Source of the DNA: a virus
IMG/VR virus record: IMGVR_UViG_3300025280_000024
Location: 1-64,000 of that record
Direction: 5' to 3' (one strand)
Length of the DNA: 64,000 bases
Under the pieces are notes generated by a model. The model was not told where the DNA came from, made no database searches, and saw only the letters and a program-made list of their open reading frames with translations. A program made the translations under genes and the position numbers. Numbering within the stretch: the stretch's first letter is position 1; every line of letters starts with the position of its first letter. Shown here in pieces: positions 10,421 through 64,000 of this stretch.

Positions 10421-10665
10421 ATAGACCTTCTGGAAGCATTAGTCACGAAACAGATATGGGTTTAATGGATATGATAGATTTGGTCAGCACTCAAAAAGAT
10501 ATCATAACATTGCTACGGCGATACGAAGGGCACCAAATGACAGTGACAGAAGAAATCAGTTTTTTTCAATATCTTGTTGATGCCGGCCTTGTTTGGGCTA
10601 TGCCATCCAAATACGTTTCAGTAGCAAAAGAGATGCTTAAAAAAAGATTTATTTATCTCAATTAA
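10417..10665 (+). CDS. hypothetical protein
   Basis: ATGA coupling after AAGGA; contains FFQYLVDAGLVW. Confidence 0.6.
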   Translation: MNRPSGSISHETDMGLMDMIDLVSTQKDIITLLRRYEGHQMTVTEEISFFQYLVDAGLVWAMPSKYVSVAKEMLKKRFIYLN

Positions 10666-10668
10666 CCC

Positions 10669-10697
10669 TTGACAAGTATAACTACCTGTGATATCAT
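10669..10697 (+). promoter_or_regulatory. sigma70-type promoter
   Basis: TTGACA-17 bp-TATCAT with TG extension; ATG 6 nt downstream. Confidence 0.7.
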
Positions 10698-10703
10698 TAT
10701 AGA

Positions 10704-11291
10704 ATGAAAGAAAAAATCAACCAACTTACAAAAATAGTAAACCACCTGACTGCAGTGGAACTAGCATTTTTCAACTCAGTCAAATGTAAAACTTCCTTTT
10801 CTCCTCCGCAAACAACAACGATCAACCATCTTTACAGCAAATATTGTGAAGATGGGTGGAGAACAAACTATGATGATAGAAAGCGAAGAATTATGAAGAG
10901 TTGTGCTGAGTTTTGGGTAAACAATCCCCCAAAGCTCAGTGAGTTGGCTGCTCAAGTGCTGAATAATCCCGACTTTGTCCCAACCAAAGATCAATACAAA
11001 GAAATGTGCGAGAGCAAAGAAGCTCGCAACTTTCTCAATCCCGAGGGAGCCAAACCGTTGTATCCTGCCGGGAGCTTAGTTAAAGTTTCGCGCATATCTT
11101 CAGGTCCTGGTCAATGGGGCGAGGCCTTCATAGGAAAATTTGGAGTCGTCATTCGAGTACGAAAGAACGAACAGGTTTACCCAAGTCACAATTCCGATTT
11201 TTTATATCATGTCTTATTGCAAGGATCAACGGGAATGATAATGTTCCCAGAAAGAGACATAAAATTAATTGAGGTTCAAAATGAGAGTTAA
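10704..11291 (+). CDS. hypothetical protein with a C-terminal KOW/SH3-like domain
   Basis: YPAGSLVKV...GKFGVVIRV...YHVLL...ERDIKLI. Confidence 0.65.
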   Translation: MKEKINQLTKIVNHLTAVELAFFNSVKCKTSFSPPQTTTINHLYSKYCEDGWRTNYDDRKRRIMKSCAEFWVNNPPKLSELAAQVLNNPDFVPTKDQYKEMCESKEARNFLNPEGAKPLYPAGSLVKVSRISSGPGQWGEAFIGKFGVVIRVRKNEQVYPSHNSDFLYHVLLQGSTGMIMFPERDIKLIEVQNES

Positions 11292-11613
11292 TATTACATA
11301 TTCAGTTGAAATGGACAAAATTCCGGAGAAAGTTTCCGACTTTCTTTTAAATGCTGCCGTTAAATCTTCTGAATTAGTTCGTGATTTAAACGAAATGGTG
11401 GTTGACATGTGCAATGACTTTTCAATTGAAAAACATTTAGAACGTATGGATAAAATACGTCTTGAACTTGCCGGCATAGACCATACAATGTTAGATTGTT
11501 CTGAAATATTACACGGATATCAAAAAGCTTTGGTTCAACTAAGAGAACCACAAATATCAACAGAGGAAAATCACCATGACGAAACAAGAAATGAAAAAGC
11601 TGAAGGGGGGTGA
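11281..11613 (+). CDS. hypothetical coiled-coil protein (MRVNITYSVE...)
   Basis: SD GAGG before ATG 11281. Confidence 0.65.
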   Translation: MRVNITYSVEMDKIPEKVSDFLLNAAVKSSELVRDLNEMVVDMCNDFSIEKHLERMDKIRLELAGIDHTMLDCSEILHGYQKALVQLREPQISTEENHHDETRNEKAEGG

Positions 11614-11815
11614 TTTAATTTATTTGCCATCTGCGGTAACACTGTATAAATTTAACAAGGAAAACCCCTGTGTACATCAGGCAACCACAACACTTAAGCC
11701 AGTGACAACGGCATTTGTCAACCGATATAATAATCTTTGTGGTGTTCTATATAATGGAGAAATTTGGAGTGTTAACTCTCAAAATATATTTTTAGTAGGG
11801 GAACAACATGATTAA
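11576..11815 (+). CDS. SH3-like hypothetical protein
   Basis: GGDLIYLP...VLYNGEIWSV. Confidence 0.55.
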   Translation: MTKQEMKKLKGGDLIYLPSAVTLYKFNKENPCVHQATTTLKPVTTAFVNRYNNLCGVLYNGEIWSVNSQNIFLVGEQHD

Positions 11816-12104
11816 ATTGATTGAAGTATATAGAGAGAAAGGGTTTGGTGGAAGTAGTGGGTTTAAGATGAGAGAAGTATATATAAATCCCAGCCACGTC
11901 ATCTGTATGTATGATGACCTTTCAATGAAAAAGGGTCTTCTTGAGGGGTTGTTACCACAAGACCTCGACAAACGACAACTATTCACCAAGTTGCGTCTTA
12001 ATCAAGGTCAATCCTTGCACCAAATCACTGTTGTCGGCAGCACCAATATCATTAGCGAGAAACTGGGTCGGCGCGCCGACAAACGACAAATACTGCACGA
12101 TTAG
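11808..12104 (+). CDS. hypothetical protein (weakly FlbD-like)
   Basis: MIKL...EVYINPSHV...TKLRL...ITVVGS pattern. Confidence 0.5.
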   Translation: MIKLIEVYREKGFGGSSGFKMREVYINPSHVICMYDDLSMKKGLLEGLLPQDLDKRQLFTKLRLNQGQSLHQITVVGSTNIISEKLGRRADKRQILHD

Positions 12105-12149
12105 AGGCACCAACGAAGGTTTTACCAATCTGCCCGCCTAGTTACTTAT

Positions 12150-12533
12150 GTGAGCGATTCGAAGCATACATATAATGCTCCCAATATAACACAAGATCTA
12201 GAAGCCCAAGAAGACTCTTGGGAACAACACGATAACTTAAGCGAAAATCAAAAGCTTTTTCTAGAAGCCTCAAAAGAAACATCAAATAAAATTACACGCG
12301 TTGTGAGTCAACAAAAAATACACTTTGAACAACAGTTACGTCGACAAAAAAACAACACCAAAGGTTTAGTTATCCCTTATTTAGAACCCCACGTTCCAGA
12401 AATAGAAATTAATAAATTAGACTCTGGCGGCTTTGAAGTTAAAGTCACAATCTCTGGCGATGGAGACACTACATCTTCGGCAATCAGAGATTTGATGTTA
12501 ACAACGTTCAAAGTGTTGGAAAAATTGATATGA
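12150..12533 (+). CDS. hypothetical protein
   Basis: 127 aa; preceded by CTAGTTA. Confidence 0.55.
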   Translation: MSDSKHTYNAPNITQDLEAQEDSWEQHDNLSENQKLFLEASKETSNKITRVVSQQKIHFEQQLRRQKNNTKGLVIPYLEPHVPEIEINKLDSGGFEVKVTISGDGDTTSSAIRDLMLTTFKVLEKLI

Positions 12534-12739
12534 AAGATGATATCACGTTTAGTAAAATATTATTTTTCATCGTGGCAATAACAGCGTTGCTTTTTATTAT
12601 GTTTGGTTTAAAATGTGATAATAAGAATACAGAACAACTCTTAGATATAAAACCAGTGAGTCAACCAACAATAGAAGGAACTGGAACTTCACCACGGTAT
12701 TGTCGCGAACCTGTCTGTGATCCACTAACTGATAACTGA
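12530..12739 (+). CDS. small membrane-anchored protein
   Basis: N-terminal TM segment ILFFIVAITALLFIMF. Confidence 0.55.
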   Translation: MKDDITFSKILFFIVAITALLFIMFGLKCDNKNTEQLLDIKPVSQPTIEGTGTSPRYCREPVCDPLTDN

Positions 12740-12856
12740 AGCAAGAATAATGAAAACATCCAATGTATCTACTGGAACAAAGCGTTCAGGTTCGACAAAA
12801 CCACCATTTAGAATTTCAAAAAAATTAATCAAATACTTTTTAATGATATGAATCAT
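12725..12856 (-). CDS. 43-aa hypothetical protein (not in ORF track)
   Basis: SD GGAGG; MIHIIKKYL...VIS*. CTATTTA motif upstream at 12885-12891. Confidence 0.45.
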   Translation of the reverse strand: MIHIIKKYLINFFEILNGGFVEPERFVPVDTLDVFIILASVIS

Positions 12857-12920
12857 GATTTTCCTCCCTTGGAAAATATCTTAATAAATAGGTAGTTAAA
12901 AGCAATTTGATTAATTTTTA

Positions 12921-13655: not shown

Positions 13656-13694
13656 TTGTTTTCTCCCTCTAAGTGTAACTAGAGAGAAAATTAA

Positions 13695-13883: not shown

Positions 13884-13926
13884 CTAGGCTCTCCTCTTTA
13901 ACTTAACGAGTATAACAAATTTTTTT

Positions 13927-16668: not shown

Positions 16669-16696
16669 AAAAGGGCCGGCAAATGCCGGCCCTTTT
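16669..16696 (-). terminator. intrinsic (possibly bidirectional) terminator after hsp20
   Basis: AAAAGGGCCGGCA-AA-TGCCGGCCCTTTT hairpin. Confidence 0.85.
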
Positions 16697-17533: not shown

Positions 17534-19102
17534 TTATGTCTCAACGATGGCAAAATTTGATGTAATAATTGCGCCGGCAACAGACGCAGCGTTCTGGAGA
17601 GCACAACGAGTGACCTTTGTTGGATCTATAATACCGTTATCAATCATGTGAGTTGGAGTTCCACTGGTAAAATCCCAACCATATTCATAATTTTCATCAT
17701 AAACAGTTGCAAGAACAAGATCAGCCGATTCTCCAGCATTAATAGCCATTTGTCTTATCGGCTCTTCAACAGATTTTTGAATGATTTTAACTCCCAACTT
17801 TTGATCTTCAGTGTCAACTTCAATTTTAAGATCGTGAGCAGCACGAATTAGAGCAACACCACCACCAGGAACAACACCTTCTTGTTGAGCAGACTTAACT
17901 GCTTCTAAAGCATCATCAATTCTATGTCTCTTTTCAATCATCTCAATCTCGGTTGCAGCGCCAACTCTAATCACTGCAATTCCACTGGCAAGTTTTGTGA
18001 TTCGCTCTTGAATCTTTTCACACTCGTGAATTTCTTCTGTTTGACCGATCTCAACTTTGTATGCTTCAATTCTTTTTTCGATCTCTTCCCAATCACCTTT
18101 GCCGCCGGCAATTGTTGTTCTGTTCTTGAAACTTTCAATTTTGCCGGCGAGACCCAAATGTTCAAGTTTAACTTCGCGAAGTTTTAATCCGGACAATCTT
18201 GAAACAAAGGTTGCTCCAGTTGATAAAGCAAGGTCTTGCAAGATCGCTCGTCGTTCTTCACCATACCTTGGAGCTTTGATTGCTGCGACCTTCATTGTAC
18301 CCCTAACGGCGTTCATGATGAGCGCCGCCAAAGCTTGTCCTTCTATATCCTCTGCGACAATGATGAACGGTTTTGCTTCTCTCGCAGCAACCTCAAGAAT
18401 TGGATAAATATCCTCAACGGTTTCGATCTTATAATCTGTGACAAGAATCAGAGGATCGTCGTATACAACTGCTTGTTTTCTTTCATCAGTAACAAAATGA
18501 CCGGCAACATAACCAGAATCGAAGATGAAACCTTCAATCAACTCCAGACTGGTTTCTAATGATCTTGCCTCTTCGACTGAAATTGCTCCATCTTTGCCGG
18601 CGCTATCGACAGCAGTGGCAATAAGGTTTCCAATGGATTCGTCTCCGTTTGCTGAAATGGTTGCGATATGTGCTACGTCTTGTTCACTGGAAATTGGAAC
18701 AGATAGATCCTCTAACTTCTCGACAATAGCCTTGACTGCCTTGTCGATCCCTCTCTTGAGTTCGATAGGAGATGCGCCGGCCATCAAGTATCGTTGTGCT
18801 TGTTTGAGGATAGCTCTGGCAAGTACAGTTGAAGTTGTCGTGCCATCGCCGGCCTCTATGTTGGTTTGTTCGGCAGCTTGTTTGAGAATTTGTGCTCCAA
18901 CATTTTGGATTGGATCATCAAGTTCAACAAACTTCGCTACAGTTACACCGTCTTTTGTTGTGATTGGGTTTTTTCCTTTTTGATAAAGGATAACGTTGCG
19001 ACCTCTGGGGCCGAGAGTTGATGCGACATTGTCTGTTAGAATATCAACTCCTTCTAGGATCTTTTTGTGTAGTTCTGTTTCACTACAATATTGTCTGGAC
19101 AT
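17534..19102 (-). CDS. groEL: chaperonin GroEL
   Basis: TLGPRGRNV, TKDGVTVA, GDGTTT, GVVPGGG and IIDPTKVTR motifs. No C-terminal GGM tail. Confidence 0.97.
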   Translation of the reverse strand: MSRQYCSETELHKKILEGVDILTDNVASTLGPRGRNVILYQKGKNPITTKDGVTVAKFVELDDPIQNVGAQILKQAAEQTNIEAGDGTTTSTVLARAILKQAQRYLMAGASPIELKRGIDKAVKAIVEKLEDLSVPISSEQDVAHIATISANGDESIGNLIATAVDSAGKDGAISVEEARSLETSLELIEGFIFDSGYVAGHFVTDERKQAVVYDDPLILVTDYKIETVEDIYPILEVAAREAKPFIIVAEDIEGQALAALIMNAVRGTMKVAAIKAPRYGEERRAILQDLALSTGATFVSRLSGLKLREVKLEHLGLAGKIESFKNRTTIAGGKGDWEEIEKRIEAYKVEIGQTEEIHECEKIQERITKLASGIAVIRVGAATEIEMIEKRHRIDDALEAVKSAQQEGVVPGGGVALIRAAHDLKIEVDTEDQKLGVKIIQKSVEEPIRQMAINAGESADLVLATVYDENYEYGWDFTSGTPTHMIDNGIIDPTKVTRCALQNAASVAGAIITSNFAIVET

Positions 19103-23667: not shown

Positions 23668-24666
23668 TTACCTCCTTAAAATATGAGTTGAGCTTTCAAC
23701 CTGCCCCGCTGGTGTCTGCTTTATAAACTGTGCTTTAAATTGTAATGCATAAATGGTCCTGGCACCGGAATAAGAAAGACCACTGCGAATACCATTTTCT
23801 AATTCTTCTAAAACGCCGGCGACTGAACCTTTACATGCAACCGTTGTTGAGATACCTTCATTTGAAGAATAAGTTCCTCTCCAATCTTTCTGTGCTGCTT
23901 TGGATGCCATCCCGCGATATACTTTATACTTCTTTCCTCTTTTGTTCACGAACGATTCTCCCGGTGTTTCAGCTGTGCCGGCGAGGAGAGAACCAAGCAT
24001 TACGAAATCTGCGCCAGCAGCCAGGGCTTTCACGATATCACCCGCTGTTCTTATGCCTCCATCAGCAATAATGGTTGTGTTGAGATCTGCTCGGGCACAA
24101 TCCAAAATAGATTGAAACACAGGCATGCCGTGACCGGTGTGAATTCGAGTAGAACATATAGAACCACCTCCAAGGCCGACACGAACACTGTCTGCTCCCC
24201 AATCGGATAAACGCTCATATGCATTACGACACGCAACGTTGCCGGCCATAAGGTGGATCTCTGCCCCATATTCTTTTTTGAGATTTTCAATCGCATCTCG
24301 CATTAGAAAATGATCTCCGTGAGCAATATCCAAACAAAAGATACGAATGCCGGCACCATATAACGCTGACGCACGTTCAAGGTAGTCACCTGTTACACCA
24401 ATTGCTGCAGCACGAACATTTTCATAGCTAACAAACCCAATTTGTTCTGCGATGGAACAATAGCGATGAATGATTCCCAAACCGCCGGCATCATTCATAG
24501 CCAAAGCCATTTCAGTTTCAGTAATTGTATCCATTGGGCTAGAGATAACAGGCAGTGGAAACGAAGTATTTCCCAGCCTGTTTTCTAGATTTACTTCTGA
24601 TCTGCTTTTAATGTCCGAATACTGTGGAACTAGCAGTACGTCATCGTAAGATAAACATTTTCTCAT
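23668..24666 (-). CDS. GMP reductase / IMPDH-family protein without CBS domains
   Basis: YDDVLLVP, SSPMDT, GGGSICSTR, IIADGGI and YRGMAS motifs. The flap lacks the IMPDH Arg-Tyr dyad, which favours GMP reductase. Confidence 0.88.
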   Translation of the reverse strand: MRKCLSYDDVLLVPQYSDIKSRSEVNLENRLGNTSFPLPVISSPMDTITETEMALAMNDAGGLGIIHRYCSIAEQIGFVSYENVRAAAIGVTGDYLERASALYGAGIRIFCLDIAHGDHFLMRDAIENLKKEYGAEIHLMAGNVACRNAYERLSDWGADSVRVGLGGGSICSTRIHTGHGMPVFQSILDCARADLNTTIIADGGIRTAGDIVKALAAGADFVMLGSLLAGTAETPGESFVNKRGKKYKVYRGMASKAAQKDWRGTYSSNEGISTTVACKGSVAGVLEELENGIRSGLSYSGARTIYALQFKAQFIKQTPAGQVESSTHILRR

Positions 24667-24950: not shown

Positions 24951-25212
24951 AGTGCTTAGTCAAGTCATCACTTCCTCCAACAAGCATTGGATGTGGAACT
25001 GGTGTATCCTGCCATGGAACCTCTTTGTGAACAATATATTGAACAATTGGCACAGTGGTCATTTCGTTCTGTTTCTTGACTTCATCCAGAAGTTCTGGAT
25101 TGTGAGTAAGATTCCCAATCATAAATAGCTGTTCGTGTTCTCTCAATGTCCCAATTGCCTTGTCACAATGTGAACACCCGTCTGTTGTGTATACGATATA
25201 ATAGTCTTTCAT
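24913..25212 (-). CDS. glutaredoxin
   Basis: CSHC, TTVP and VGGSDD motifs. Confidence 0.85.
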   Translation of the reverse strand: MKDYYIVYTTDGCSHCDKAIGTLREHEQLFMIGNLTHNPELLDEVKKQNEMTTVPIVQYIVHKEVPWQDTPVPHPMLVGGSDDLTKHFEEPEENVEEKD

Positions 25213-25685
25213 CTTGCCTCCATTGTTTTGATGATAGTTTGTGGTTCTGATTCAAATATAATAACTGCCGATGGGAATGGTGCGCAATTTTCGCTATTTC
25301 CAAACTTCAGTCTTCCTTTTACGAAGTGTATTTCTTTTGCTCTCATACAATATTCGTGCCAATACTTAGTATCTGTTCTGGCCGGAATAAGGCAGACAAC
25401 TTTTGTATTCGGCTTTAATGATTCTCTATATGCTTTCTCGATCCAAGCAGAGATTTCACGGCCATAAGGAGGGTTCATAAATACTGTCTGCTTCTCCCAA
25501 GACTGAGACAGTCCATTGTCCAATGGTGTGAAATAACATTCAGAAACTTTGGTTGTCTCTTCTGTTGCGCAAGGGTCAAGCGTAAATGGCCCGAACTCTT
25601 CATTTAGTTTTTCATAAAAATCTTGTGGTGTTTCCCAGTCCTTAGATTTAGAACTGAACATCACTTCTTGTGTTTGTTTATCCAT
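25209..25685 (-). CDS. phage Dam-family DNA amino-methyltransferase
   Basis: WETPQ, LDPCA, MNPPY, PARTDT and GRLKF motifs. Confidence 0.9.
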   Translation of the reverse strand: MDKQTQEVMFSSKSKDWETPQDFYEKLNEEFGPFTLDPCATEETTKVSECYFTPLDNGLSQSWEKQTVFMNPPYGREISAWIEKAYRESLKPNTKVVCLIPARTDTKYWHEYCMRAKEIHFVKGRLKFGNSENCAPFPSAVIIFESEPQTIIKTMEAR

Positions 25686-26488: not shown

Positions 26489-29400
26489 TTAGTTTGGCAA
26501 CATCTTAAAGTTTCTTCCTAACTTTCCATATGAACTAAATCCCCAGTTTTCACTGTATTTCAATTTAGCCATATATGGTCGATTAAGCTCGATATGATCT
26601 TTATTCGTAATTCCCCAGCACCATATTGTTGATGTCGCTGAAGTATCGTCTATTGCTTTAACAAGGAAGTATTCTCTTCCATTGCTGGCAACTCTTCTTG
26701 TAACTTCTCTCGGAATAAACCAGCATACCTGCAAATCAACATCATAATGGCTGATCGATGGGATATACAGCTCTTCCAGCTTTTCTCTTGATTTCTCGGA
26801 TAAAACTAGATCCATCGGGAACATTCCAGTCAAATCTGAAAGATATTCGACCTTCTCTTGTAGGAGAAGATCTCCCTCTATGGCATATTCCTCGATATTC
26901 TTATCCAGCGCTTTCTTGGTCTTTGGCCGATCATTTGCCACAGCCATCCAAAAATGCCGCATTCCAGTAAACCTTTCATCCATCAAACAGTTCAAAGTTT
27001 GACTGCGAACGAGAACATCCAATGCCTTTTTGTTCAACTTCGAATAAACGATGTTTTCGTCAAACAACAAGTCTTCAATCGTCTCAAATGGTCGATTGTC
27101 GATGATCTGCTCAATTGCTTTGTCTCCCAATCCCTTGATTGAGGACAGCGGTTGAATGAGAGTCTTGCCGTCTTCGGAAATCTCCCATGTTTCACCGGAT
27201 GTGTTGATATTCAATGTTTCGATGTTGAAACCAAATGACTTTGCAGTGTTGATTGCGCGTTCTTTCTTTTTCTCCGATTCGTGTGAAAGCACGCTCGCCA
27301 TCCACTCTGCCGGATAATAGTTGAGCAACCAAGCACACTGAAAGGAAATTATAGTATAACAGACGGCATGACTCTTGTTGAAGCCATACTTACTGAAATA
27401 AGCCATCTTCTCCCAAAAGTCGCTAGCTTGATCTGTGGTTAGTCCCTTGTCCACGCAGCCTTTTACGAACTTCTCATAAAGTCGCCCATTTCCGGCCTCG
27501 GATCCCTTTTTGATCAAAAGCTTTCGCAGCTTGTTGCCCTCATCGAGCGTAATGTTATCACCAAGTTTGTGAGCGAGTTCTGCAATATCCTCTTGAAAGA
27601 TGATGAACCCATAATTGTCACCAAGTACTTCCTCAATAATCGGATGTTCATATGTGACCATATCTGGGTGTCTTTTGGCCTCCAAATAGCTTCTATCGAC
27701 TTTTGCCCCCAGTGGACCCGGTCGATAAACACTAGTAACCATTGCGAGATCTGACAAGGAGACTGGTACAACGTTCTTGCAGAAGTTCTGCGCTCCCGAC
27801 TCGCTAAACTGAAAAACACCGCCAAATTTCCCTTTCTGGAAGATATTCTCACAAACCTCTTGATCGTCAAAATCAATAACGTCTGGATGGAGGTGTTTAT
27901 CGTAATACTCTCTTATGTCTTTAAATGCCGGCTTTTCTATATTGTGGTGGCGTTTAAGGATGTGAGTGATTGCTCCATTAATCATTTCCAACGTCGTGAG
28001 GCCGAGAATGTCAAACTTAATGAAACCCATTGGTTCCAAGTGTCTTACGTTCTGCCCCTCCGACCATGGCGTCTGCGTGACTCCTCCAGTCTTGATTAGG
28101 GGCATATGCTCATTTAGATTCTCGGCAATCACAACGCCGCCGGCATGTCTAGACGAAGATCTGATTTGACCGTGCAAAACATCAATATGATCGGAAATCT
28201 GGGAATTCCTTTGAAGAAAATTTTTCAGGCTTTCGCTATATTTCTTTAACTCTTCAAACGTGGGAGAATAGACCCCTGCTGTGATGCCGTGGTCCTTCTT
28301 GGCTTGTGGTGTAGCCTCTCTGATCATTTTGCTGGTAACTTTGTTGACTTCAGCAAAAGGAATGTCAAAGAACTTTGATATGTCTTTAATAAGAGACCGG
28401 AGCTTAAGCGTGTTCCAATTAGTGATGGGAACAACGGTGTTCGCTCCCCACTCCTCAATCAGCTTCTCCTTGAACTCTTGTGGCCTCTCTACGTCGTAGT
28501 CGATATCAGGCATACCAATCTTGGCTTGATTAGCCGACATAAACCTCTCAAATAGCAGACCGAACCTAATCGGATCAACCTGAGTAATGCCGAGCACATA
28601 AGAAGTCAAAGCACCAGCGGCGCTGCCCCTGCCGGCGCCAACCAGCCTATCCATCCTGGCTCTGTCTGCAATCGCTTTCATGGTAAGAAAGTATTTCGCA
28701 AATCCCTGATCGTTGATGATTTTCAACTCATGTGCTAGCCTATCAATGTATTCTTTCTTTTTGTGAAGATCACGCCGGCGTAACCCTGTTTGACAGAAAA
28801 ACTTCAATGCTTGCTCTGGAGTTTTACCCTTTGGAACAACAAAATCAGGTAATCTTATTTTGGTTTCTGGCGTATAGTCTTCAATAAGAGTGTGTGCGAT
28901 GTAGTGAGTTCTTTCTATTGATTGACGCACTAAGTCATCATCATAGTTAACTTCCATCTTTTCACAACATGTTTTGTAGGAATCAAAAACCTGATCGCCA
29001 TTCTTGACAAACAGTTCACACTGTGTTTCTTCGATGGACTCTGGCAAAGGATCGATGTCACTGGCTTTCTTCTTTCCTAACCAGGCCAAACGCTTGTATA
29101 GTTCTCTATCGATCCACTTCTCTTTCACTGAATAATGACAGTCAGCCGCAGTGACCAAAGGTACATCAAATTCTTTTGCGATTTTAATGACAAGCTTATT
29201 TAATTCATGCTGTTCTGGTATTATATTCCATTGGATCTCGGCATGCCAGCGATCACCAAAGATTGCCAGCATCCTGCGAGTTGTCTCCCTCATAGCGTCT
29301 AACACAGCCTCTTCGCCCTCTTCGCGGAGTTCCCAGTAGCTGCCGGCATAAATGCCACCTAGGCACGCAGAGGTCGCGACGATGCCTTCATTGTGTTTCT

Positions 29401-35400: not shown

Positions 35401-35499
35401 AACAGGACCCCATGGGACTTCTTCATGTCTATATTGATCAATGAAAACCTCCGATAAGCGAAACCTTCTTACTGTCTGTTGGTATGGATCATATTTCAT
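32449..35499 (-). CDS. nrdJ: class II (B12-dependent) ribonucleotide reductase containing an intein
   Basis: TPPGRGLW, FNC, GNVRRSA, NP|CVEQ, KPSGTVS motifs and a C-terminal CDGDYC. Confidence 0.95.
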   Translation of the reverse strand: MKYDPYQQTVRRFRLSEVFIDQYRHEEVPWGPVGYITYKRTYARRLDEFDPGTEGTEEWFQTCRRVIEGMFTIQKKHVASLGLEWNDTKAQKTAKEAYDRLFNLKWTPPGRGLWMMGTKFVEERTGAGLFNCSFRSTREIDTKGGYLFRWIMDALMLGVGVGFDTLGSRKLTVKQPEWIDEVHYVPDDREGWCESVQILLDGYFFGQRVPRFDYSKIREYGAPIKGFGGTSSGYKPLKQLHDDLKELYDERIGKEIRSTTIVDTENLIGKCVVAGNVRRSAALALGEYNDMDYLSMKNDEKKLYSHRWGSNNSFNAYVGMDYTWHSEQSQKNGEPGYIWLDNAKTRGRMKDGYRDDDINVAGFNPCVTVDTWIHTSTGPRQVRDMIQNVDFGKIIVDGKEYESTSNGFWKTGIKKVFEIETAEGHTLKLTDNHKLMTSKGWLPLSEISVDDKIVLNDHRGYQWKGEGIFGEGYLLGLLTGDGTFAKEQAILSVWHEDDESHTGIMTEVLNSIAPMKKRKDFKGWSHITSRNESRLRLGELNKLASSYNIDRTKRVTENIEQTSCEFYSGYLRGFFDADGSVQGTQANGVSIRLSQSNTERLQAVQRMLLRMGISSRIYQNRRVAGKSYLPDGKGGNAWYDTKASHELVISGEDLFYYEERIGFSHDSKRLKLKTLLSEYKRKPNKTKFLATVSSITGLGEEPVYDITVAEVHAFDANGLYAHNCVEQQLEDAELCCLVETFPAKHDDYEDYLKTLKIAYMYGKTVTLVNTHWPETNGIMLKNRRIGLSQSGVVQAFNKHGRRELYNWCDNAYEEVRKLDKGYSDWLCVPRSVRTTSIKPSGTVSLLNGSTPGIHFPESEFYIRRIRFSADSDLLKTIGEHGFKIEDDEYSPNTKVVEFPIHEPFFEKGKKDVSIWEQLEIAAQYQHYWADNSVSITCTFQPEEAKDIKSALEMYETRLKAVSFLKYKETGYVQAPYEPITREQYKEMIKDVIPIQRIKTNNAGNGTKFCDGDYCEL
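33331..34404 (-). mobile_element. intein (358 aa) with a LAGLIDADG homing endonuclease
   Basis: Begins CVTVDTWI, has block B TDNHKL, LGLLTGDG and LRGFFDADG, and ends VYDITV...AHN|C. Confidence 0.95.
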
Positions 35500-46902: not shown

Positions 46903-49893
46903 TTATGAGGCATTTAAATTATATCTCTCATTAACTAGATCAACAACCGTTCTTCCCAATTGTCTTCTGTCTAATTCTAGTACTACGGTTGTGCCACCGC
47001 CGCCGGCTGCAGCGCCGGCAGTTGGGGCGGTGGCGCCCTTTAAGACTCTTATCAAATTATCAATAGCTTTGTCCCACATTAACACACTAGCAAAACCTAT
47101 TTTAATAGAAGCAACTTCTTTGATTACATCTGTCATTTTCTTTGCTGATTCTACTGCGGCTGGTGTGGCAATCGTTGCGACCTCTGCCATTTTTTCCATT
47201 GTGTGAGCCAGGGCAAGACTTTTAAATACAGGCACATCGTCTATTGAGCCGGCAATTTCTTCTATTCCTTCTCCGACCATCCACAAATTAACGCCCACGT
47301 TTTTATCCATATCTTTCATTTGACTTGTGAATCTTTCAAATGCAGCAATTTTTTCCAAAGACATATCTTTGAAAGCCGCACCAATAGCATAGAGGCCGGC
47401 AGCGAACACAGCCAAACCAACGCTGACAAAAGGCAGCATCATAATAAAACCAATAGCTGCGAAAGCCAAAGCCAAGGCCACCAACGCTATAGCTAATGCA
47501 AACAATTGTGCCGGTTCAACTGATACCAAGCTATCAAGCATCGCTGCAATGCCCTGGGCGGCTATCCAAACTCCAAGACCCATCAGAGCTACGGCGGCAC
47601 CAACCATAAGAGCGGCAAGACCAAATATTAACATTGGTGGGCCGGCCCCACTAGATGCAGCTGCAAGAGCCCACATACCAGCTGCAAGAATAAAAATACC
47701 AATATAGAGGGGCGGCGAATGCATGGATGCCATGATTGCTGCGCCTATGGCCAACAATATCGAAACTATTAATATGGCTTTACCCAGTGCCATCTTTTGG
47801 GCCATGGCATATAAGAGCCAAGCAGCGGCTAGGGTAGCAATTATTGCGGCGAGTTCTGGGCCCAATTTTTTAAACACCATAAAAACAGCAATTAGAACAC
47901 CAGCAACTAATAAAGTTCTAGCCATGACTATCTGCAAGCGCGCGTGAGCGAATGTTAATTTAGTTGTTGACAACACCAGCTGAATATTTTGTAGGTTCCA
48001 GATCGCCAACGCAAAAGCCTGCAGCTTACTTAAAAATAAAGATATTTTTGCTATCTTGGTGAAAGCATAGAAGACACCAATTAAACCAAACATAGTCGGT
48101 ATAAGCATATTGCCTAAAACACCATTAACTTTTAAAAGACCCTTCATTATTAAATTAAACCCATCGACAATCGGGCCAATCACAATTGCCAGTGATTCGA
48201 ACATGATCTTCAAAGATTCTTGTGCTGAAGCATTGAGCAGAGCCCTTTCTTCCATATCTTCTTGACTCATTGCGCTGGCTTCAGCAGCGGCTTGTTGTTG
48301 ATCATAAGCAGACAAACTTTGGCTAAACAATTGATTTGCTGCTGTCATATCTGTAATGCCGGCAGCACTGGCCACAGCTTGACGCTCAAACCTTCCCATA
48401 GCTTCCCAACTTCTACCAGAAAGTTCTATGGATTGGATCAACATTCGAATTCTTTCATCATCAGAAGCATTCAGAAGATCCACAGAGTTTAACAAATCCC
48501 CACCCAATATGGCATTTAAGCGACCAGCAGCTTCAGCAGCACCTTGGAATGTATCAAACTGACCAGTAATACCAAGCAGTTGACTAATTTCTAAACCAGT
48601 TACTTTGGCGGCCGCGGCGAGACCCTTGAAAACATCAATTGCTTGATTGCCAAACTTGGCCAGTTGTGGCATTGCTTCATTAAACCCAGCCACCAACTCT
48701 TCGATCGGTCGACCCAAAGCTGCAGCCGTGGCAACTAGTTCTCTTTGTGCTGTCATGGCGCCGGCGGTGGTCATATTCAATGATTTTGTTGCAAGGTTCA
48801 TGAACGTGGCCGTTGTTTGCGAAGCAACTCCCAAGCGACCCATGGAAGCTGAAAATCCGGCCAGTTCTGTTTGTGCTTCTTCACTCATGCCGGCAAAGTC
48901 GCGCATGCCGACATACAATTCTTGTGTTGCTTCCACAGCTTCAGCAAAAGAAACTCCCAACCCTGCTGTGTTGGTGCGAACATCTAACATGACATCATCC
49001 ATCGTGCCCATGGCGCCGGTTGTTCGATTAAAAGAAGCAAAAGCAGAATCTGCAGCGAGAACCATGGCTATTGTTGATTCTTTAACTTTTAATAATGTCC
49101 CCTGAAACACATTGGCAGGATGAAACGATTTAGCAAATTGAGAAGCAATATCTCCCAAATAATTTGTAAAGCTGCCGGCTTCTTTAATGTTTTGCTGCAT
49201 CTGACCGATCCAGCCCTCACTGAATTCACTGGCAAGACCGGTTAATTTCGTTATTTTGGATGCTGTCTGTTCTTGAACCCTGTTAAACGCACGCTGGCGC
49301 TTAACTTTTTTTGCGTGAAGTTTTTCTGCGTCTCTTGCATACCCGTCGGCGCCCATGGCGACTATCTGGGCCTGGTTGTCAACGTTTTTAAGTGCATCAA
49401 TTTCGGCCTCTAATTCAGCGCTGGGACCGGCGCCGTCAGGTGCTGATAATTTTTTTTGTAATTTTTCTAATTTCTCCAGCGCTGCTTCTTTTTCTTTAGC
49501 TATAGCTAATGCTTCATCGGCAATTTTTCTCGCGGCAGAAGCTAGTGCTTCCTGTTCAACGACTTCATTAGCAATCGCCCTTGCTCTATCATCTAGGTTG
49601 GCAAGTAGTTTTTCGCCGGCAAGAGCGCGTCGATGTTCTTCATCAGCAATCGCTTTGGTTTTAATTGCTGTCGCCGCTACAAGATCCCCTATATCCTTTT
49701 GAAGACGTACTTCTTTTTCTTTTAGATCGTTTAAACGTTCCAGGGCCTTTTCTTGGGTGCGCGCAGCCGCAGCAGCGCGGGCGTCGGCGGCGGCGGCCTT
49801 CTCGGCGGGGGTCAGGGTCTTCGGCGCGCTTGCAAACGCAGGTATACCCAGAAGTGTCGCGAGAATTATAATTATAAGGACGGCTGCTAGCAT
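46903..49893 (-). CDS. tail tape measure protein
   Basis: 996 aa, Ala-rich helical, with many hydrophobic segments; canonical position. Confidence 0.8.
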   Translation of the reverse strand: MLAAVLIIIILATLLGIPAFASAPKTLTPAEKAAAADARAAAAARTQEKALERLNDLKEKEVRLQKDIGDLVAATAIKTKAIADEEHRRALAGEKLLANLDDRARAIANEVVEQEALASAARKIADEALAIAKEKEAALEKLEKLQKKLSAPDGAGPSAELEAEIDALKNVDNQAQIVAMGADGYARDAEKLHAKKVKRQRAFNRVQEQTASKITKLTGLASEFSEGWIGQMQQNIKEAGSFTNYLGDIASQFAKSFHPANVFQGTLLKVKESTIAMVLAADSAFASFNRTTGAMGTMDDVMLDVRTNTAGLGVSFAEAVEATQELYVGMRDFAGMSEEAQTELAGFSASMGRLGVASQTTATFMNLATKSLNMTTAGAMTAQRELVATAAALGRPIEELVAGFNEAMPQLAKFGNQAIDVFKGLAAAAKVTGLEISQLLGITGQFDTFQGAAEAAGRLNAILGGDLLNSVDLLNASDDERIRMLIQSIELSGRSWEAMGRFERQAVASAAGITDMTAANQLFSQSLSAYDQQQAAAEASAMSQEDMEERALLNASAQESLKIMFESLAIVIGPIVDGFNLIMKGLLKVNGVLGNMLIPTMFGLIGVFYAFTKIAKISLFLSKLQAFALAIWNLQNIQLVLSTTKLTFAHARLQIVMARTLLVAGVLIAVFMVFKKLGPELAAIIATLAAAWLLYAMAQKMALGKAILIVSILLAIGAAIMASMHSPPLYIGIFILAAGMWALAAASSGAGPPMLIFGLAALMVGAAVALMGLGVWIAAQGIAAMLDSLVSVEPAQLFALAIALVALALAFAAIGFIMMLPFVSVGLAVFAAGLYAIGAAFKDMSLEKIAAFERFTSQMKDMDKNVGVNLWMVGEGIEEIAGSIDDVPVFKSLALAHTMEKMAEVATIATPAAVESAKKMTDVIKEVASIKIGFASVLMWDKAIDNLIRVLKGATAPTAGAAAGGGGTTVVLELDRRQLGRTVVDLVNERYNLNAS

Positions 49894-59196: not shown

Positions 59197-59226
59197 AAAA
59201 AAAGCCCGCCCTGACGGGCGGGCTTT
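59197..59226 (-). terminator. intrinsic terminator after the major capsid gene
   Basis: AAAGCCCGCCC-TGAC-GGGCGGGCTTT plus an A7/T7 tail. Confidence 0.9.
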
Positions 59227-59246
59227 AATTGTTAGTTAGCTATTGT

Positions 59247-61064
59247 TTAGCTAGCTCCACTCTCTCCGAGCAAGCCGCGAACAACAACCAGACCATACAT
59301 ATCAGGTCTGACCATCTTCTTAGCATAACGAGTCATCACGCCCTTGCGAGGCACGAAGTCTTCGATACCGAAGATCGTCGGAGTAACCTGCAGCGGTACA
59401 TAAGGAGCATAAACATAGCCGCTCTCAAGGAACGAACCACCCTTACGACCAACCAAGACGAGGTTACGAGGGAAATAGGGGTCAACATAGACGTCCCACT
59501 TCTTACTCATAGCGCCAACCTTGACAGTTCCGACAGTGCCACGATCGTCATCAGCAGTCACACTAGCTCGAAAGCCAGAGGTAAACTCAAGGACGTTCGC
59601 AACTTCAGGAGAAGTAACAATAAAGTTAGCTCCACCACGAAGTGTCTTACGATGAATCTGTGCAGACACATCATTAATGGTCTCAGCAAGAGTCTCATAC
59701 CACTCACTAACTGTACCCGTGAAATCGGGAGCAGCTGCTGTAGCACCAAGCTCGGTGCCGGTTGCTCGATTAACGAACAGACCAGGCGAGCGCGACCAGT
59801 AATACGTTCCAGCAGTAGCCAGTCGTACAAGATCATTAAGAATCTCCCGGTCAATCTCAAGAGCAATCTGCTCAGAGAGAATACTCGTAAGTTCAACCTC
59901 TGCATCCAAGTTGTGATAAGCGTTGAGATCCTGGCCAAGTTCCGGAGTCCACTTCGCTTTCAGCTTCTTAGTTACAGCAGTGACACTCACCGAATCGACC
60001 TTGATGTCGATCTCGGGAATTTCTGTGTTATTCTCTAGACCCCACGTAGTGGTTCCAGCAATAGCACCAATAGCATTGGCGTCACCAGCAGCTGCAGTAC
60101 CATCAAAAGCATCCTTTTCCGGATAATGAACTGTAATTGCCACTGCTGTATCCGCAGCTGCAGCTGTTGAATCACCGTGCATAGTAAACTCAACGGTAGC
60201 TACATCAACACGTCTAGTCAATCGACGAACTGGGCGAATATCTTCATTTGCATCCAGACCAAATGCAACGCCAGATCCGCTAGCCTGTGGGCGAATATCA
60301 AGGAGAATCATGTTTTCCATATTGATATTCGCCTGTTGAGCGGCAGTAAGAGTAACATGTACCTGTTGAACTTTATCAGTACTCTCGGCGTTCAAAAGAT
60401 CCGGATCAAAACGCAAGTCTTTCTTCTGAGCTTCCGACAGCGCGCTGATTGCAGTAAAAGCTGCCAAGTTAGCGGTTGCACCCGGGAAGCCGTTTGCAGC
60501 AGTAACTGCGGCGGCAGGGGCAATTGCGCTAGCTGCAAGAGGAAGCGTTCCAGATGGCGAAGAATAACCTTGGTTAAGGTTGTAAAACCCCTTATCAGCA
60601 TTATCTCCAGTAGAGGTAACACCCGCATCACGAGCTTCTTGACTAAGGTCCACACCACCAGTGATCTCCTGGCCAACCCTTCCACCACCGTATAATGAAT
60701 CATTTGCACGATAATCATATCTCGCAGCCGTATACTGAAAATCAAGGAAGAAGATCAGTCCAGAGGGCAAACTCATGGGCTGAACACTTACAAGATCATT
60801 TGCAATAAGTCCACCGAACACTCGACGGACGATCGGAAACGCGACGGCCGCGAAACCCTCGACGTCACCACCAGCCATAGACGAAGCTTCCTTCAGAAGC
60901 TGCTTGGCCTGGTTTTCAAGAAGGCGTGCCATAGTAGACTTCTTTCGATCTCCTCCGAGACCTTCAAGAAGGCCAGTTGCCTCCCACTTATTAAGAAGGG
61001 CATCGCCCTCCTTTTGAAGATCTCGATCAACGATACCTTCAGTTAATTTTTCTAAAATACTCAT
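59247..61064 (-). CDS. major capsid protein (T4 gp23-like)
   Basis: PIVRRVF..LIA.DLVSVQPM..P.GLIF, KLKAKWTPELGQDL, EIDREI, YAPYVPL and GVMTRY motifs. Confidence 0.96.
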   Translation of the reverse strand: MSILEKLTEGIVDRDLQKEGDALLNKWEATGLLEGLGGDRKKSTMARLLENQAKQLLKEASSMAGGDVEGFAAVAFPIVRRVFGGLIANDLVSVQPMSLPSGLIFFLDFQYTAARYDYRANDSLYGGGRVGQEITGGVDLSQEARDAGVTSTGDNADKGFYNLNQGYSSPSGTLPLAASAIAPAAAVTAANGFPGATANLAAFTAISALSEAQKKDLRFDPDLLNAESTDKVQQVHVTLTAAQQANINMENMILLDIRPQASGSGVAFGLDANEDIRPVRRLTRRVDVATVEFTMHGDSTAAAADTAVAITVHYPEKDAFDGTAAAGDANAIGAIAGTTTWGLENNTEIPEIDIKVDSVSVTAVTKKLKAKWTPELGQDLNAYHNLDAEVELTSILSEQIALEIDREILNDLVRLATAGTYYWSRSPGLFVNRATGTELGATAAAPDFTGTVSEWYETLAETINDVSAQIHRKTLRGGANFIVTSPEVANVLEFTSGFRASVTADDDRGTVGTVKVGAMSKKWDVYVDPYFPRNLVLVGRKGGSFLESGYVYAPYVPLQVTPTIFGIEDFVPRKGVMTRYAKKMVRPDMYGLVVVRGLLGESGAS

Positions 61065-61097
61065 TTCTTTTAAACCTCCTATTGTTTTAAAAATAAA

Positions 61098-62096
61098 CTA
61101 TTTAATTCCCGCAAGCTTTCGCATGCGATCTCGGACCGGATTTGGTAAGCCGGAATCACGCGTCTTTTGACGATTAACCCTAAGCACAGAATTCCTTCTT
61201 TCCAAAGCTTCGTTCAGTGATTTTGGTTCTTTTTTTCTTGAAAAGTTGGAACCCACTGCACTTTGAAGCGTTTCGTAAAGAACTCTAGCTTCTTCTACCG
61301 TATCCGCTTTTGAAATAGCTTCGACAATTTTTCTTTTTTGTCGCTCATTCAGGGAGGTGCTACTTAAAATCTTGTTTGAATAAAGCAATCTAGCGTTTGA
61401 TGATACCATTTCTTCGAGCTTTTCTTTAAGCATCATCACTGCTTTCTTGTGTTGCTTCGTGTTACTAACTAGTTGTTTGTTTGTCTTAATTACTTTTTTA
61501 AGACTTTCTTTTAATTCTTCGTTTTCTTCTTTGTATTCAGAACTTTGCATTCGGGCGAGATCTAAATCTTTCTCAAACTCCAATTCTGCTTCGGGCCTGC
61601 CTGCCCACCCACTCATTTGAGGAGACATATCAACAAGAAGCTTTTCAATCAATTCTTCATCGATCTCGATATCTTCTTCTAATGCAAAAAGTTCTTCGTC
61701 TTCTTCTGGCATCTGCAACCCGGCAGTCACTTCAGCAGCTGCTTCTTCCTCTGTCTCTTCTGGTACACCCTCTTCTTCACTTATAGCTTTCTGAAGAGCG
61801 CTCAAATCCATGGTCACGATGGCTTCATCATCTGGACAAGGACAAAGATCTTCGCCGGCGGTGGCTGCATCGGCAACATCTACATCATCAAATGTTTCTC
61901 CTCCACCTTCTAATGGTGCTAATGGTGCTGCTTCTCCTCCCAACAACTCTTCCTCTTCGGGTTGTTCTAGAAGAGATTCGACTGCCTCTTTAATATCGGC
62001 AGAATACTTTTCAATAATTGTTTGTTCTGCGTTTTTGACAGCGGCTTCTTTTAATGCACTAGCATCGACAATCGCCTGTTCTAACATTGATGACAT
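61098..62096 (-). CDS. prohead core / scaffolding protein
   Basis: Acidic coiled-coil with many L-x-E sites, immediately upstream of the MCP gene. Confidence 0.75.
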   Translation of the reverse strand: MSSMLEQAIVDASALKEAAVKNAEQTIIEKYSADIKEAVESLLEQPEEEELLGGEAAPLAPLEGGGETFDDVDVADAATAGEDLCPCPDDEAIVTMDLSALQKAISEEEGVPEETEEEAAAEVTAGLQMPEEDEELFALEEDIEIDEELIEKLLVDMSPQMSGWAGRPEAELEFEKDLDLARMQSSEYKEENEELKESLKKVIKTNKQLVSNTKQHKKAVMMLKEKLEEMVSSNARLLYSNKILSSTSLNERQKRKIVEAISKADTVEEARVLYETLQSAVGSNFSRKKEPKSLNEALERRNSVLRVNRQKTRDSGLPNPVRDRMRKLAGIK

Positions 62097-62223
62097 ATAT
62101 AACTCCTTGAATACATTATTAATAAATAGATGTTCACAAATAAATAGTATTTAGTTCTTTAAAATGACTATATGTGTTGATTTTCTGTTATCTCCGACTT
62201 TCATATAGTTACTCTACTTTATC

Positions 62224-63432
62224 CTATAGCTCAATAAAATCTGGTGAAGGACTGAAAAATATCAAATCTACATCAATTGAATGTCCTATAACTCTGACAA
62301 CTTCTCCAGAACCCGATGGTATTACAGTTGTATATTGACCGGCAACAAAGCTGGCATATACTTGTCCTCCAATATCAAAGGCGCCTGGGCCAGCAGATCC
62401 AGTAATAAGAGAGCTTGTTAGTTGACACAACCCACGAGTAAGAACTCCTTTGGAATGTGGTGGAGCAGTGTCACCGACAATTGCAATAAAAGCTGCATCG
62501 CCGGAACCAGTTGCAGCTGCATTAACTAAGCTCCATTGTTTTGTTGAATCTAAATAAACCAAATGGCCGGCGGCTACTCCAGCTGCGGAACCAGTGCCTG
62601 CAAATAGTATATCACCAGATTGATCGTATGCGCTAGTGAACGATGAAGAGTGAGTCTTAAGACCAACCCCGAAACCAGGCGAGAATATAGCTGCATTACC
62701 TATGGTCACATTGCCGCCACTCATTTCAACACTGCCAGTAAATTGATAATTGGCACTTTCTCTAAAGATTATGCTTCCAGTTGCTCCAGTGCCGTCTCCG
62801 ACACCGCCGATTAACACAATGTCTCCACCATCATCATTTGTTACACTGGCTTCCGACCCTTGAATCTTAAATTCGCCAGTGGTCATGCCAAATAAAGCGG
62901 CAGGCTGAATTTTAGTCTCAGTGGGTCCAGCCTTAAGCTTGAGAAGATTCAGGCCTCCAGCAGTATTCCTCCCGCCTATTGCGATCTCGACTCGGTGATC
63001 AGCAGCAGGAAGTATTGAATTGTTTCCGAAAATATATATTTCTTCTGGATTGGCCGAAGAGGTCATTCTAAAATGAGCCCCTTCAAAGTCGGCATCGTAT
63101 TCCAAACTGGTCTTGACTCCAGCTTTATCTATAGACAAAGTTGAAGCACTTATTTCAACACTGCCAGTAAATTGGTGAGTGTCGCCGGTGTCATTACCAA
63201 ATTTTGTATCACCTAAATAAGTGGTTGTAGTGATCGTTTCGAACGCATATGATGTAATTGTTCCAGAAACATCTAAACCTCCAGAAAGTACAAGTTTATC
63301 GTTGGTATAATCATATGTAAAGTTGCTAGATCCACTAAGAGTAGATCCTGAATTGAATTGAACGTGTGTGTCGGCGCCACCCACAGTTGCAGCCGCGGCA
63401 CCCGATATATATGCCCATCCTAAATTTGGCAT
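62224..63432 (-). CDS. virion fibre/structural protein
   Basis: Gly/Ser/Thr-rich; VQFN.G..LSGS and FGND..DTHQFTGS motifs; late motif upstream. Confidence 0.7.
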   Translation of the reverse strand: MPNLGWAYISGAAAATVGGADTHVQFNSGSTLSGSSNFTYDYTNDKLVLSGGLDVSGTITSYAFETITTTTYLGDTKFGNDTGDTHQFTGSVEISASTLSIDKAGVKTSLEYDADFEGAHFRMTSSANPEEIYIFGNNSILPAADHRVEIAIGGRNTAGGLNLLKLKAGPTETKIQPAALFGMTTGEFKIQGSEASVTNDDGGDIVLIGGVGDGTGATGSIIFRESANYQFTGSVEMSGGNVTIGNAAIFSPGFGVGLKTHSSSFTSAYDQSGDILFAGTGSAAGVAAGHLVYLDSTKQWSLVNAAATGSGDAAFIAIVGDTAPPHSKGVLTRGLCQLTSSLITGSAGPGAFDIGGQVYASFVAGQYTTVIPSGSGEVVRVIGHSIDVDLIFFSPSPDFIEL

Positions 63433-63585
63433 TAGATATTATTCTCCTATAATAACATAATTAGTTCGTAATCAGTTATAAGCTATATCGATTGTCTAAA
63501 ATTAGTTCCAAGTTGAAGATTGATGATTGGCAGAGTTCACAGAGGATAGTGAATATCTGATTTGAATTATTGTTCATTCGTCATG

Positions 63586-64000
63586 TTAAAAAGTGGAGCA
63601 TGCGGCAAAGATATTAACTTCACCAGAATCTTCGTGAACAAAAGCAACCCTATCTATTCCCACTATATGATAAACTCGATATTCTCTGGCGCTTGGAACT
63701 TGACTCGCCACAGCGACTTCGGAATCAGCCACTGTTATAGAAGCAGCTGTTGGATTGGTGTTGTCACCAACTGGAAAAGGAGCTGACTCTGGTATCTCAA
63801 ACCACCTTAAAAAAGCATGACAATATCCAAATATAGTCAACGCAGCTGGCGTGGTATCATGCGCATCTTCAACAAGGACATGCAAATATCTTTGATTTTC
63901 TGTAGCATAACCCTCAGTTGATGCAGTAATACCTTGTAAGTTGTTTGTATTCGCCAAAGGTGTAACCGTCCCACCTTGACTGCCGGCTAAATTCTTGGGG
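63586..64000 (-). CDS. hypothetical (probably structural) protein, 5'-truncated by the window
   Basis: The frame stays open past TTG 63957 to the window edge (..PKNLAGSQGGTVTPLANT..). Confidence 0.65.
   Translation of the reverse strand, partial: PKNLAGSQGGTVTPLANTNNLQGITASTEGYATENQRYLHVLVEDAHDTTPAALTIFGYCHAFLRWFEIPESAPFPVGDNTNPTAASITVADSEVAVASQVPSAREYRVYHIVGIDRVAFVHEDSGEVNIFAACSTF

Follow-up and report, generated by a model that had tools for sequence, protein, structure and literature searches.

GCCGGC as a HIP-like iterated palindrome in the genome of an uncultured phage

Short palindromes are treated in phage genomics as words to be avoided, and the DNA discussed here raises the question of why one word of the restriction type, GCCGGC, has been multiplied in it while six other palindromes have been purged to zero or one copy. 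The DNA is a 102,045-bp contig of an uncultured marine virus (IMG/VR record IMGVR_UViG_3300025280_000024); its first 64,000 nucleotides, the stretch analysed initially, are called the window. The contig has been assigned to the linear class and is 56% complete by CheckV (about 44% of the genome lies outside it), and its 142 called open reading frames (ORFs) cover 96% of the sequence. A multiplied word of this kind points to an undescribed interaction of phage DNA with a sequence-specific system of the host or of the phage.

An exact count gave 72 GCCGGC sites in the window against 4.7 expected, bearing out the roughly 70 of the initial annotation, whose 23 listed coordinates were all correct. 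In the whole contig, there are 116 sites against 6.8 expected, which corresponds to a 17-fold excess and a density of 1.14 per kb. The sites are located as follows:

3428..3433, either strand: the sole GCCGGC of the first 10.5 kb, confirmed by exact positions as the single site claimed there, read in phase 0 of a short ORF on the plus strand (3395-3574)
10582..63987, either strand: 71 scattered GCCGGC sites (about 1.3 per kb); the series runs on as far as position 102,045, where the contig ends, for a total of 116

When hexamers were compared under Markov models, as had been proposed earlier, GCCGGC ranked first in over-representation at orders 0-3, with window expectations of 4.7, 5.0, 8.3 and 28.5, respectively; it is no longer prominent at order 4 because its own pentamers carry the signal. 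Among the NCCGGN words GCCGGC alone is comparably raised, ACCGGC and GCCGGT being merely 1.5-2-fold up, and CCGG outside GCCGGC occurs 175 times against 166 expected. RCCGGY, which the initial annotation had named as a possible wider motif, is ruled out as the unit by the two 1.5-2-fold words and by ACCGGT, which stands at expectation (14 against 14.7).

Could this excess be a by-product of protein composition, codon usage or a codon-pair preference for Ala-Gly as GCC-GGC? The sites occur in coding DNA, often as Ala-Gly, and in intergenic DNA, as was noted from the start: 111 are coding (89 in-frame GCC-GGC, 7 in phase 1 and 15 in phase 2) and 5 are intergenic. As the codon explanation would have it, 80% of the coding sites are thus Ala-Gly in phase 0, and GSCGSC words are raised 3-5-fold by raw composition across the viral clade. 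However, GCC-GGC encodes 89 of the 197 Ala-Gly pairs, where independent codon choice predicts 11.4, and GCA-GGC, GCT-GGC, GCG-GGC and GCA-GGT are each depleted 3-6 fold among these pairs. Synonymous codons were also shuffled within each gene (200 runs), which keeps the proteins and the per-gene codon use; the shuffled sequences had a mean of 17.6 sites and a maximum of 28, against the 111 coding sites observed (6.3-fold, z=25). The null errs on the cautious side, since it retains those GCC and GGC codons that come from the motif itself. The excess therefore persists when amino-acid pairs and synonymous codons are controlled for.

The excess over the shuffle is 6-7-fold in each reading phase (89/14.2 in phase 0, 7/1.0 in phase 1 and 15/2.4 in phase 2), and intergenic DNA is likewise enriched, so that the confinement to one frame that would mark a translational codon-pair bias is not seen. 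Under the same null, the palindrome GGCGCC is raised 2.3-fold, and the non-palindromic siblings GCCGCC (1.33-fold) and GGCGGC (1.2-fold) are not enriched; an equal enrichment of non-palindromic GC hexamers, which would have told against a palindrome effect, is thus not observed. Outside the motif, neither codon is preferred (GCC is 19% of Ala codons and GGC 22% of Gly codons), and the pairs GCC-GCC and GGC-GGC are near expectation. Since all phases and intergenic DNA are enriched, the siblings are not, and the excess survives the shuffle, the cause works at the level of the DNA (or RNA) word rather than of translation, and the excess is specific to the word at the DNA level. An origin in protein composition or codon choice is regarded as very improbable.

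The surroundings of the sites bear on a second trivial origin, namely that the sites came with a dispersed repeat, a mobile element or DNA acquired from a GC-rich host. Such a host is conceivable in that the phage tRNAs for AAA, ATA, TTA and AGA may mean that the host is richer in GC. Against this, the flanks of the sites are unique with no conservation past position +/-1, no repeat family surrounds the sites, local GC content is flat along the contig (38-43%), and sites are richest in the genes common to relatives, not in accessory genes. This origin is scarcely credible, and codon or repeat artefacts are effectively excluded as the cause.

At position +/-1 itself, there is a preference. The base before the site is a pyrimidine at 74% of in-frame sites, compared with 53% before other Ala codons (p=4e-5), and the base after it is a purine at 79% of in-frame sites, compared with 64% after other Gly codons (p=0.004). 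This symmetric preference (YGCCGGCR) is weak and exceeds codon-position composition, suggesting a symmetric reader of the DNA word; the commonest 8-mer at the sites is TGCCGGCA (24 of 116). Spacing between sites is Poisson-like (coefficient of variation 0.87-0.93, compared with 0.97 +/- 0.13; close pairs at the expected number), which rules out regular spacing. The initial annotation had placed two of the sites in one terminator, and this structure was found:

16669..16696, minus strand: intrinsic terminator with a 12-bp stem (12 pairs, 8 of them G-C) that is formed by the GCCGGC sites at 16675 and 16685, a loop of 4 and a T-run on the minus strand

How the sites arise and how long they last was assessed from orthologues in the complete 185-kb relative G001, the partial relatives G002 and G003, and the sister contig G004 (capsid 79% identical). 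In-frame sites of the present contig are also the motif at 2 of 50, 0 of 34, 1 of 11 and 0 of 15 positions in G001 to G004, respectively, where divergence is deep and the set holds no close relative of this phage. In G001, 64% of the motif Ala-Gly pairs have another dipeptide as their counterpart, in most cases X-Gly, so that many sites arose when a variable residue beside glycine was changed to alanine. Also, 11 motif sites of the sister contig align to non-motif positions in this phage. These comparisons show that the sites originate in place and turn over fast. In closer pairs of relatives (80-98.5% nucleotide identity), GCCGGC was kept at 30 of 53 sites (57%) and GGCGCC at 15 of 26, compared with 46-75% for sixteen control hexamers and 44-46% for the two non-palindromic siblings. 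The low sharing and the control-level retention indicate that density persists and individual sites do not, the latter being under no detectable purifying selection. In reads of four marine runs mapped on the contig, none of the 40 variants listed, of about 1,520, falls inside a site, a number too small to speak to conservation or to gain and loss. In the pair of relatives L029 and L034, which are 99.8% identical, 2 of 21 GCCGGC and 1 of 23 GGCGCC sites differ where about 1% is expected, which hints, on small numbers, at raised turnover at these words.

Six other palindromes are nearly or wholly missing from the same contig. For GAGCTC, CTCGAG, CACGTG and GTGCAC, where about 15 copies each would be expected, there are 0; CGTACG and TACGTA occur once each, with expectations of 14.7 and 32, respectively. 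Such a pattern is the classic mark of restriction avoidance, and the phage DNA is therefore not generally protected by base modification; the general statement of the initial annotation that phages avoid 6-bp palindromes therefore holds in this phage, in which the sign is opposite for GCCGGC itself. Among GC-only palindromes, 5 of 8 are enriched under the codon-aware null (GCCGGC 6.3-fold, CCCGGG 3.3-fold, GCGCGC 2.6-fold, GGCGCC 2.3-fold and CGGCCG 1.9-fold), where the median of non-palindromic GC hexamers is 1.18-fold.

This wider enrichment is what would be expected from a general mutational process that perfects GC-rich near-palindromes, by template switching or quasi-palindrome correction, with coding constraints favouring GCC-GGC and GGC-GCC. 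Relatives that show GGCGCC, GCGCGC or ACCGGT instead, and the dispersed CCCGGG of Microcystis phage Mel-JY01, would fit such a process. However, it leaves unexplained that GCCGGC stands about 3-fold above GGCGCC here with the ratio flipped in sister lineages, and that some lineages have no copy at all; a loopless 6-bp palindrome is a poor substrate for hairpin-templated correction, and the palindromes CGCGCG and CCGCGG are not enriched. We consider a general process of this kind quite unlikely.

Eighty capsid-linked loci of the clade were pooled (824 kb). By raw composition, GCCGGC is 4.4-fold up in the pool, GGCGCC 4.7-fold and the non-palindromic siblings 3.3-fold; since the siblings are raised as well, part of the raw excess of the clade is an Ala/Gly codon effect common to the family. 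Individual lineages differ in the word that they use. L001, L002, L062, L064, L122 and L131 are GCCGGC-specific like the present phage, L046, L029, L073, G002 and G003 favour GGCGCC or both words, and L018, L023, L041 and L066 have zero GCCGGC with the sibling words present. On the capsid tree, the word states are scattered, with 19 changes compared with 19.4 for shuffled labels (a quick search on small loci), and even sisters differ, L018 having 0 GCCGGC and L021 having 7. Enrichment of the GCC-GGC codon pair is 7.8-fold in the present phage, which is the extreme, 2.9-fold in G001, 3.6-fold in the sister contig, 1.35-fold in G002 and 2.4-fold in G003. Judged from these sequences, the word, which some lineages have multiplied and close relatives of theirs have purged, behaves like a restriction/methylation target that varies with the host.

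Further words vary in the clade. GCGCGC is enriched instead in L147, L148, L179 and L181 (10-12 copies against about 1 expected) and ACCGGT in L015 and L019 (7-8 copies against about 1 expected). GGCC is at zero or near zero in L023, L039, L044, L063, L066 and L075, the last of which also has zero GCGC and zero CGCG; the purging of different 4-mers in different lineages suggests different host restriction systems. Microcystis phage Mel-JY01 (L102, 1-50000), a cultured relative with a known host, has 44 CCCGGG against 1.5 expected at 35.6% GC, of which about 20 lie in a tandem-repeat gene (739-2298) and about 24 are dispersed in unique contexts.

The word might alternatively be a selected binding or processing site, recognized by a nucleoid or packaging protein or acting as a palindromic Chi-like signal that tames a host exonuclease or recombination, with selection on its density genome-wide rather than on single sites. 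The symmetric flank preference suits a dimeric DNA reader, all phases and intergenic DNA are enriched, density is near 1 per kb, and the phage encodes its own RecA/UvsX, gp32 and SbcCD-like (Rad50/Mre11-type) domains; for the cyanobacterial palindrome HIP1, selection rather than neutral drift has been argued (Xu et al., 2018; PMC5861425). Yet the sites are spaced in a Poisson-like and not a regular manner, show no excess conservation, and are exchanged for GGCGCC or purged in sister lineages, so that the reader would need to change its specificity frequently. No candidate reader was found in the contig, and the known signals Chi, DUS and USS lack symmetry and have an orientation. A selected binding site is possible but doubtful on this balance.

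The closest known parallel to the phage word is provided by the alternative highly iterated palindromes (HIPs) of cyanobacteria: Oscillatoria PCC 10802 has rCCGGy/GCCGGC as such a word, and Calothrix PCC 7103 has GGCGCC (Elhai, 2015; PMC4390886). They coincide with a matching m5C methyltransferase of the DmtD or GrCGyC type, and most genomes with such an enzyme have the word depleted (PMC4390886). To explain them, Elhai suggested that G-mC directs mismatch repair in such a way that site-creating mutations are retained, a ratchet that saturates near one site per kb (PMC4390886). The phage shares with these HIPs the same words, a large excess, dispersal in coding DNA at about 1 per kb, an origin in situ, a sporadic occurrence among related genomes, of which the majority are depleted of the word and a few hugely enriched in it, and the dichotomy of enrichment or purging. 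It differs in that the HIPs sit in cellular genomes with the matching methyltransferase, whereas the phage is a virus fragment in which no cytosine methyltransferase was found, and in that Oscillatoria enriches three of the four rCCGGy forms, whereas the phage enriches GCCGGC only.

HIP1 (GCGATCGC), a cyanobacterial 8-mer associated with GATC/CGATCG methyltransferases (PMC5861425; PMC3025956), is similar in being a hyper-abundant palindrome that forms in situ and is not explained by codons. Delaye et al. (2011; PMC3025956) described HIP1 as scarce where genes are recently acquired or highly expressed, and the phage word is also scarce where genes are highly expressed or probably young, a likeness confounded in the phage by alanine content and gene length. 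Unlike the phage sites, HIP1 sites are conserved between genomes above control words (PMC5861425); HIP1 also has kilobase-scale periodicity with periods of 18-94 kb, longer than 102 kb can show, whereas the short-range spacing in the phage is Poisson-like. As to the features that define a HIP, the phage word is the top-ranked over-abundant word, exceeds codon expectation and arises in situ with unique flanks; a cognate methyltransferase was not found in the 56%-complete contig, nor was site conservation above controls. The description of GCCGGC in the initial annotation as a HIP-like, highly iterated palindrome is thus upheld, with action at the DNA level. A literature search found no description of an iterated palindrome in a phage, although such a search is not exhaustive proof of absence.

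The reading that we prefer, held tentatively as plausible rather than probable, is that GCCGGC is a HIP-like iterated palindrome whose source would be a host-supplied process tied to cytosine methylation at this NaeI/NgoMIV-type site, either a biased-repair ratchet or selection for density. Both the link to methylation and repair and the supply by the host are suggested by analogy with the cyanobacterial HIPs and by the behaviour of the lineages. The sites would be made in place, singly, by point substitutions, both synonymous ones and those changing X-Gly to Ala-Gly. The drive would read a symmetric DNA word, weakly extended to YGCCGGCR, and would consist of a biased-repair ratchet or of selection for site density, as Elhai proposed for GCCGGC/rCCGGy and GGCGCC. 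Individual sites would be expendable and turn over quickly, with only density being maintained, and density would be lower in young or variable genes and where strong codon selection opposes GCC and GGC. If the drive is real and directional, the HIP problem of cyanobacteria would be extended beyond that phylum, to small, fast-evolving genomes in which gain and loss are measurable from metagenomes.

Several results weigh against this methylation-linked process. Other GC-only palindromes are 2-3-fold up, hence part of the effect is not word-specific. Site retention in the closer relative pairs is not above that of control hexamers (57% compared with 44-75%), unlike HIP1. A methylated C should raise loss by C-to-T change, yet where relatives have lost a site, the variants are not concentrated at any one position. 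Elhai's model requires an analogue of MutH, which is hypothetical. A further result concerns repair by very short patches (VSP). In Escherichia coli, Dcm/Vsr VSP repair is tied to a methyltransferase site and raises the frequency of that site, and it should deplete only the T:G-derived neighbours, which for this word are GCTGGC/GCCAGC or GTCGGC/GCCGAC. In the phage, no single-substitution neighbour of GCCGGC is depleted by raw composition; under the codon-aware null, depletion is seen at the wobble positions with any base (GCAGGC 0.66, GCGGGC 0.35, GCTGGC 0.56 and GCCGGA 0.47), and GCCAGC is not (0.94). Vsr-type repair, which resembles the preferred process in acting at a methyltransferase site, is rejected by this pattern, in which the T:G-only signature is absent (GCCAGC is not depleted and GCTGGC is not below the GCAGGC/GCGGGC pair). 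The neighbour depletion is compatible with every process, whether of selection or of repair, in which the full word is favoured regardless of the route that leads to it.

The search for a reader or writer of the word adds to these points. Six-frame family searches of the contig, which is 56% complete, found no C5 methyltransferase (PF00145), N4/N6 enzyme (PF01555) or Vsr (PF03852), the host genome being outside the search; the cytosine methyltransferase for which a search had been proposed initially was therefore not recovered in these 102 kb. The C5 family was also absent from G001, the sister contig and three other partial relatives, and a regular-expression screen for C5 motifs IV and VI gave no match in any fetched locus. 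Homologues of NgoMIV, NaeI and MutH (PF09015, PF09126 and PF02976) were found neither in the contig nor in the complete relative G001 nor in the sister contig, the PF09126 negative being weak since control genomes gave no match either. A Pfam screen of 127 ORFs yielded one methyltransferase:

25209-25685, minus strand: Dam-family methyltransferase of 158 aa with an NPPY motif (PF05869, E=1.4e-29; TIGR01712, phage N6A methyltransferase)

Being by its sequence of the N6-adenine type, this enzyme would be no candidate for GCCGGC, because the word has no adenine. The contig contains mildly more GATC than expected (493 against 365).

If the drive acts on genes for as long as they reside in the lineage, site density should differ among gene classes, and the initial annotation had held both that the word is nearly absent from the early region and that it dates gene acquisition. 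The region and the genes concerned are as follows:

1..12870, plus strand: early region with about 45 small ORFs and 4 tRNA genes (ORF and tRNA calls; few Pfam hits, among them ThyX and a GGACT-family protein)
17534..19102, minus strand: GroEL-like chaperonin gene (PF00118), with 6 of 8 Ala-Gly pairs as GCC-GGC
23668..24666, minus strand: gene of the GMP reductase/IMPDH family (PF00478), with 5 sites in 1 kb (5 of 8 Ala-Gly pairs)
46903..49893, minus strand: gene for a 996-aa protein with no Pfam family (Pfam search, site list), with 10 sites (10 of 17 Ala-Gly pairs)
59247..61064, minus strand: gp23-type major capsid gene (PF07068, E=9e-77) with no site, its 5 Ala-Gly pairs being GCT-GGT, GCT-GGA or GCG-GGT
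62224-63432: gene adjoining the capsid gene, with the motif in 1 of 8 Ala-Gly pairs
96197-97327: protein with the motif in 5 of 6 Ala-Gly pairs

Among minus-strand genes, those that have an orthologue in one or more of the four relatives carry 1.46 sites per kb and the motif in 51% of Ala-Gly pairs, compared with 0.86 per kb and 35% in those without an orthologue (density p=0.02). The early block has 3 sites (0.23-0.25 per kb; density p=0.0007 compared with the rest) and the motif in 25% of Ala-Gly pairs. Near absence from the early region thus stands for density (0.25 per kb), but not as an exemption: its 12 Ala-Gly pairs include 3 motifs where about 0.5 are expected (about 5-fold the codon expectation), so that this block, poorer in GCCGGC, is not exempt from the drive. 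Alanine content is 4.5% in the early block, compared with 6.2-8.4% in the other four regions. As claimed initially, the major capsid gene has no GCCGGC despite its Ala-Gly pairs (0 of 5, a chance of about 0.05 at the genome-wide 45%); in this highly expressed gene, the reason appears to differ from that of the early block and to be a preference for GCT and GGT codons. In the sheath gene, the motif is in 3 of 10 Ala-Gly pairs.

The gradient of density across gene classes is shown but confounded. The order from shared to unshared genes to the early block agrees with the proposed dating of gene acquisition, whereas the trend is confounded by alanine content and gene length; word density as a residence clock for genes is consistent with the data, with this confounding. 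A bolder reading, which we put forward as a speculation more doubtful than likely, is that of a word-writing process on phage DNA, in which a YGCCGGCR reader, encoded by the host or by the unsequenced 44% of the phage, would bias repair or recombination of near-sites into GCCGGC, density would serve as a residence clock, and lineages would switch between writing and purging with a change of host. If the drive is real and directional, the word would provide a host-linked sequence signature for uncultured viruses and a rough clock for the residence of genes in the lineage.

The phage itself can be placed by its genes. Its capsid protein is nearest, among isolates, to those of Flavobacterium phage immuto (48% identity), Microcystis phage Mel-JY01 (44%) and Rhodothermus phage RM378 (42%), and the virion genes on the contig encode a gp23-type capsid protein, T4-type portal, prohead protease, sheath, baseplate protein and large terminase. 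From these matches and this T4-type gene set, it is a 'far-T4' marine myovirus (T4-like). At least nine public marine metagenome runs contain more than half of a 10-kb test stretch of it. Positions 1-12,870 form a plus-strand block, and all later genes are on the minus strand. The replication genes encode a DnaE-type polymerase, DnaB, primase, RecA/UvsX and gp32; further genes encode the SbcCD-like domains, a class II ribonucleotide reductase with an intein, GroEL, the GMP-reductase-like enzyme, dUTPase and ThyX. Scans of genome contigs found no relative of the capsid protein, a single match for GroEL (a metagenome-assembled genome (MAG) of Bacilli, 32% identity) and no relative of an 887-aa protein encoded near the right end of the contig. 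The best named homologue of the phage GMP reductase is MAH60534.1 (65% identical), a protein of a MAG designated 'Flavobacteriaceae bacterium'. Relatives of this protein are encoded by metagenome contigs that have the same palindrome excesses and, at 185-192 kb, are as large as phage genomes; MAH60534.1 may thus be a MAG protein on a mis-binned phage contig and was not used as host evidence.

Three minor features of the gene content may be added. The four tRNA genes, within 1636-7747 on the plus strand, are Lys-TTT, Ile-TAT, Leu-TAA and Arg-TCT, all for A/T-ending codons. An intein that bears a LAGLIDADG homing-endonuclease domain interrupts the class II (B12-dependent) ribonucleotide reductase (32449-35499, minus strand). 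At 26489-29896 (minus strand), a bacterial-type DnaE replicase (Pol III alpha with a PHP domain), whose best phage matches are only about 30% identical, accompanies the T4-type virion module instead of a family B polymerase.

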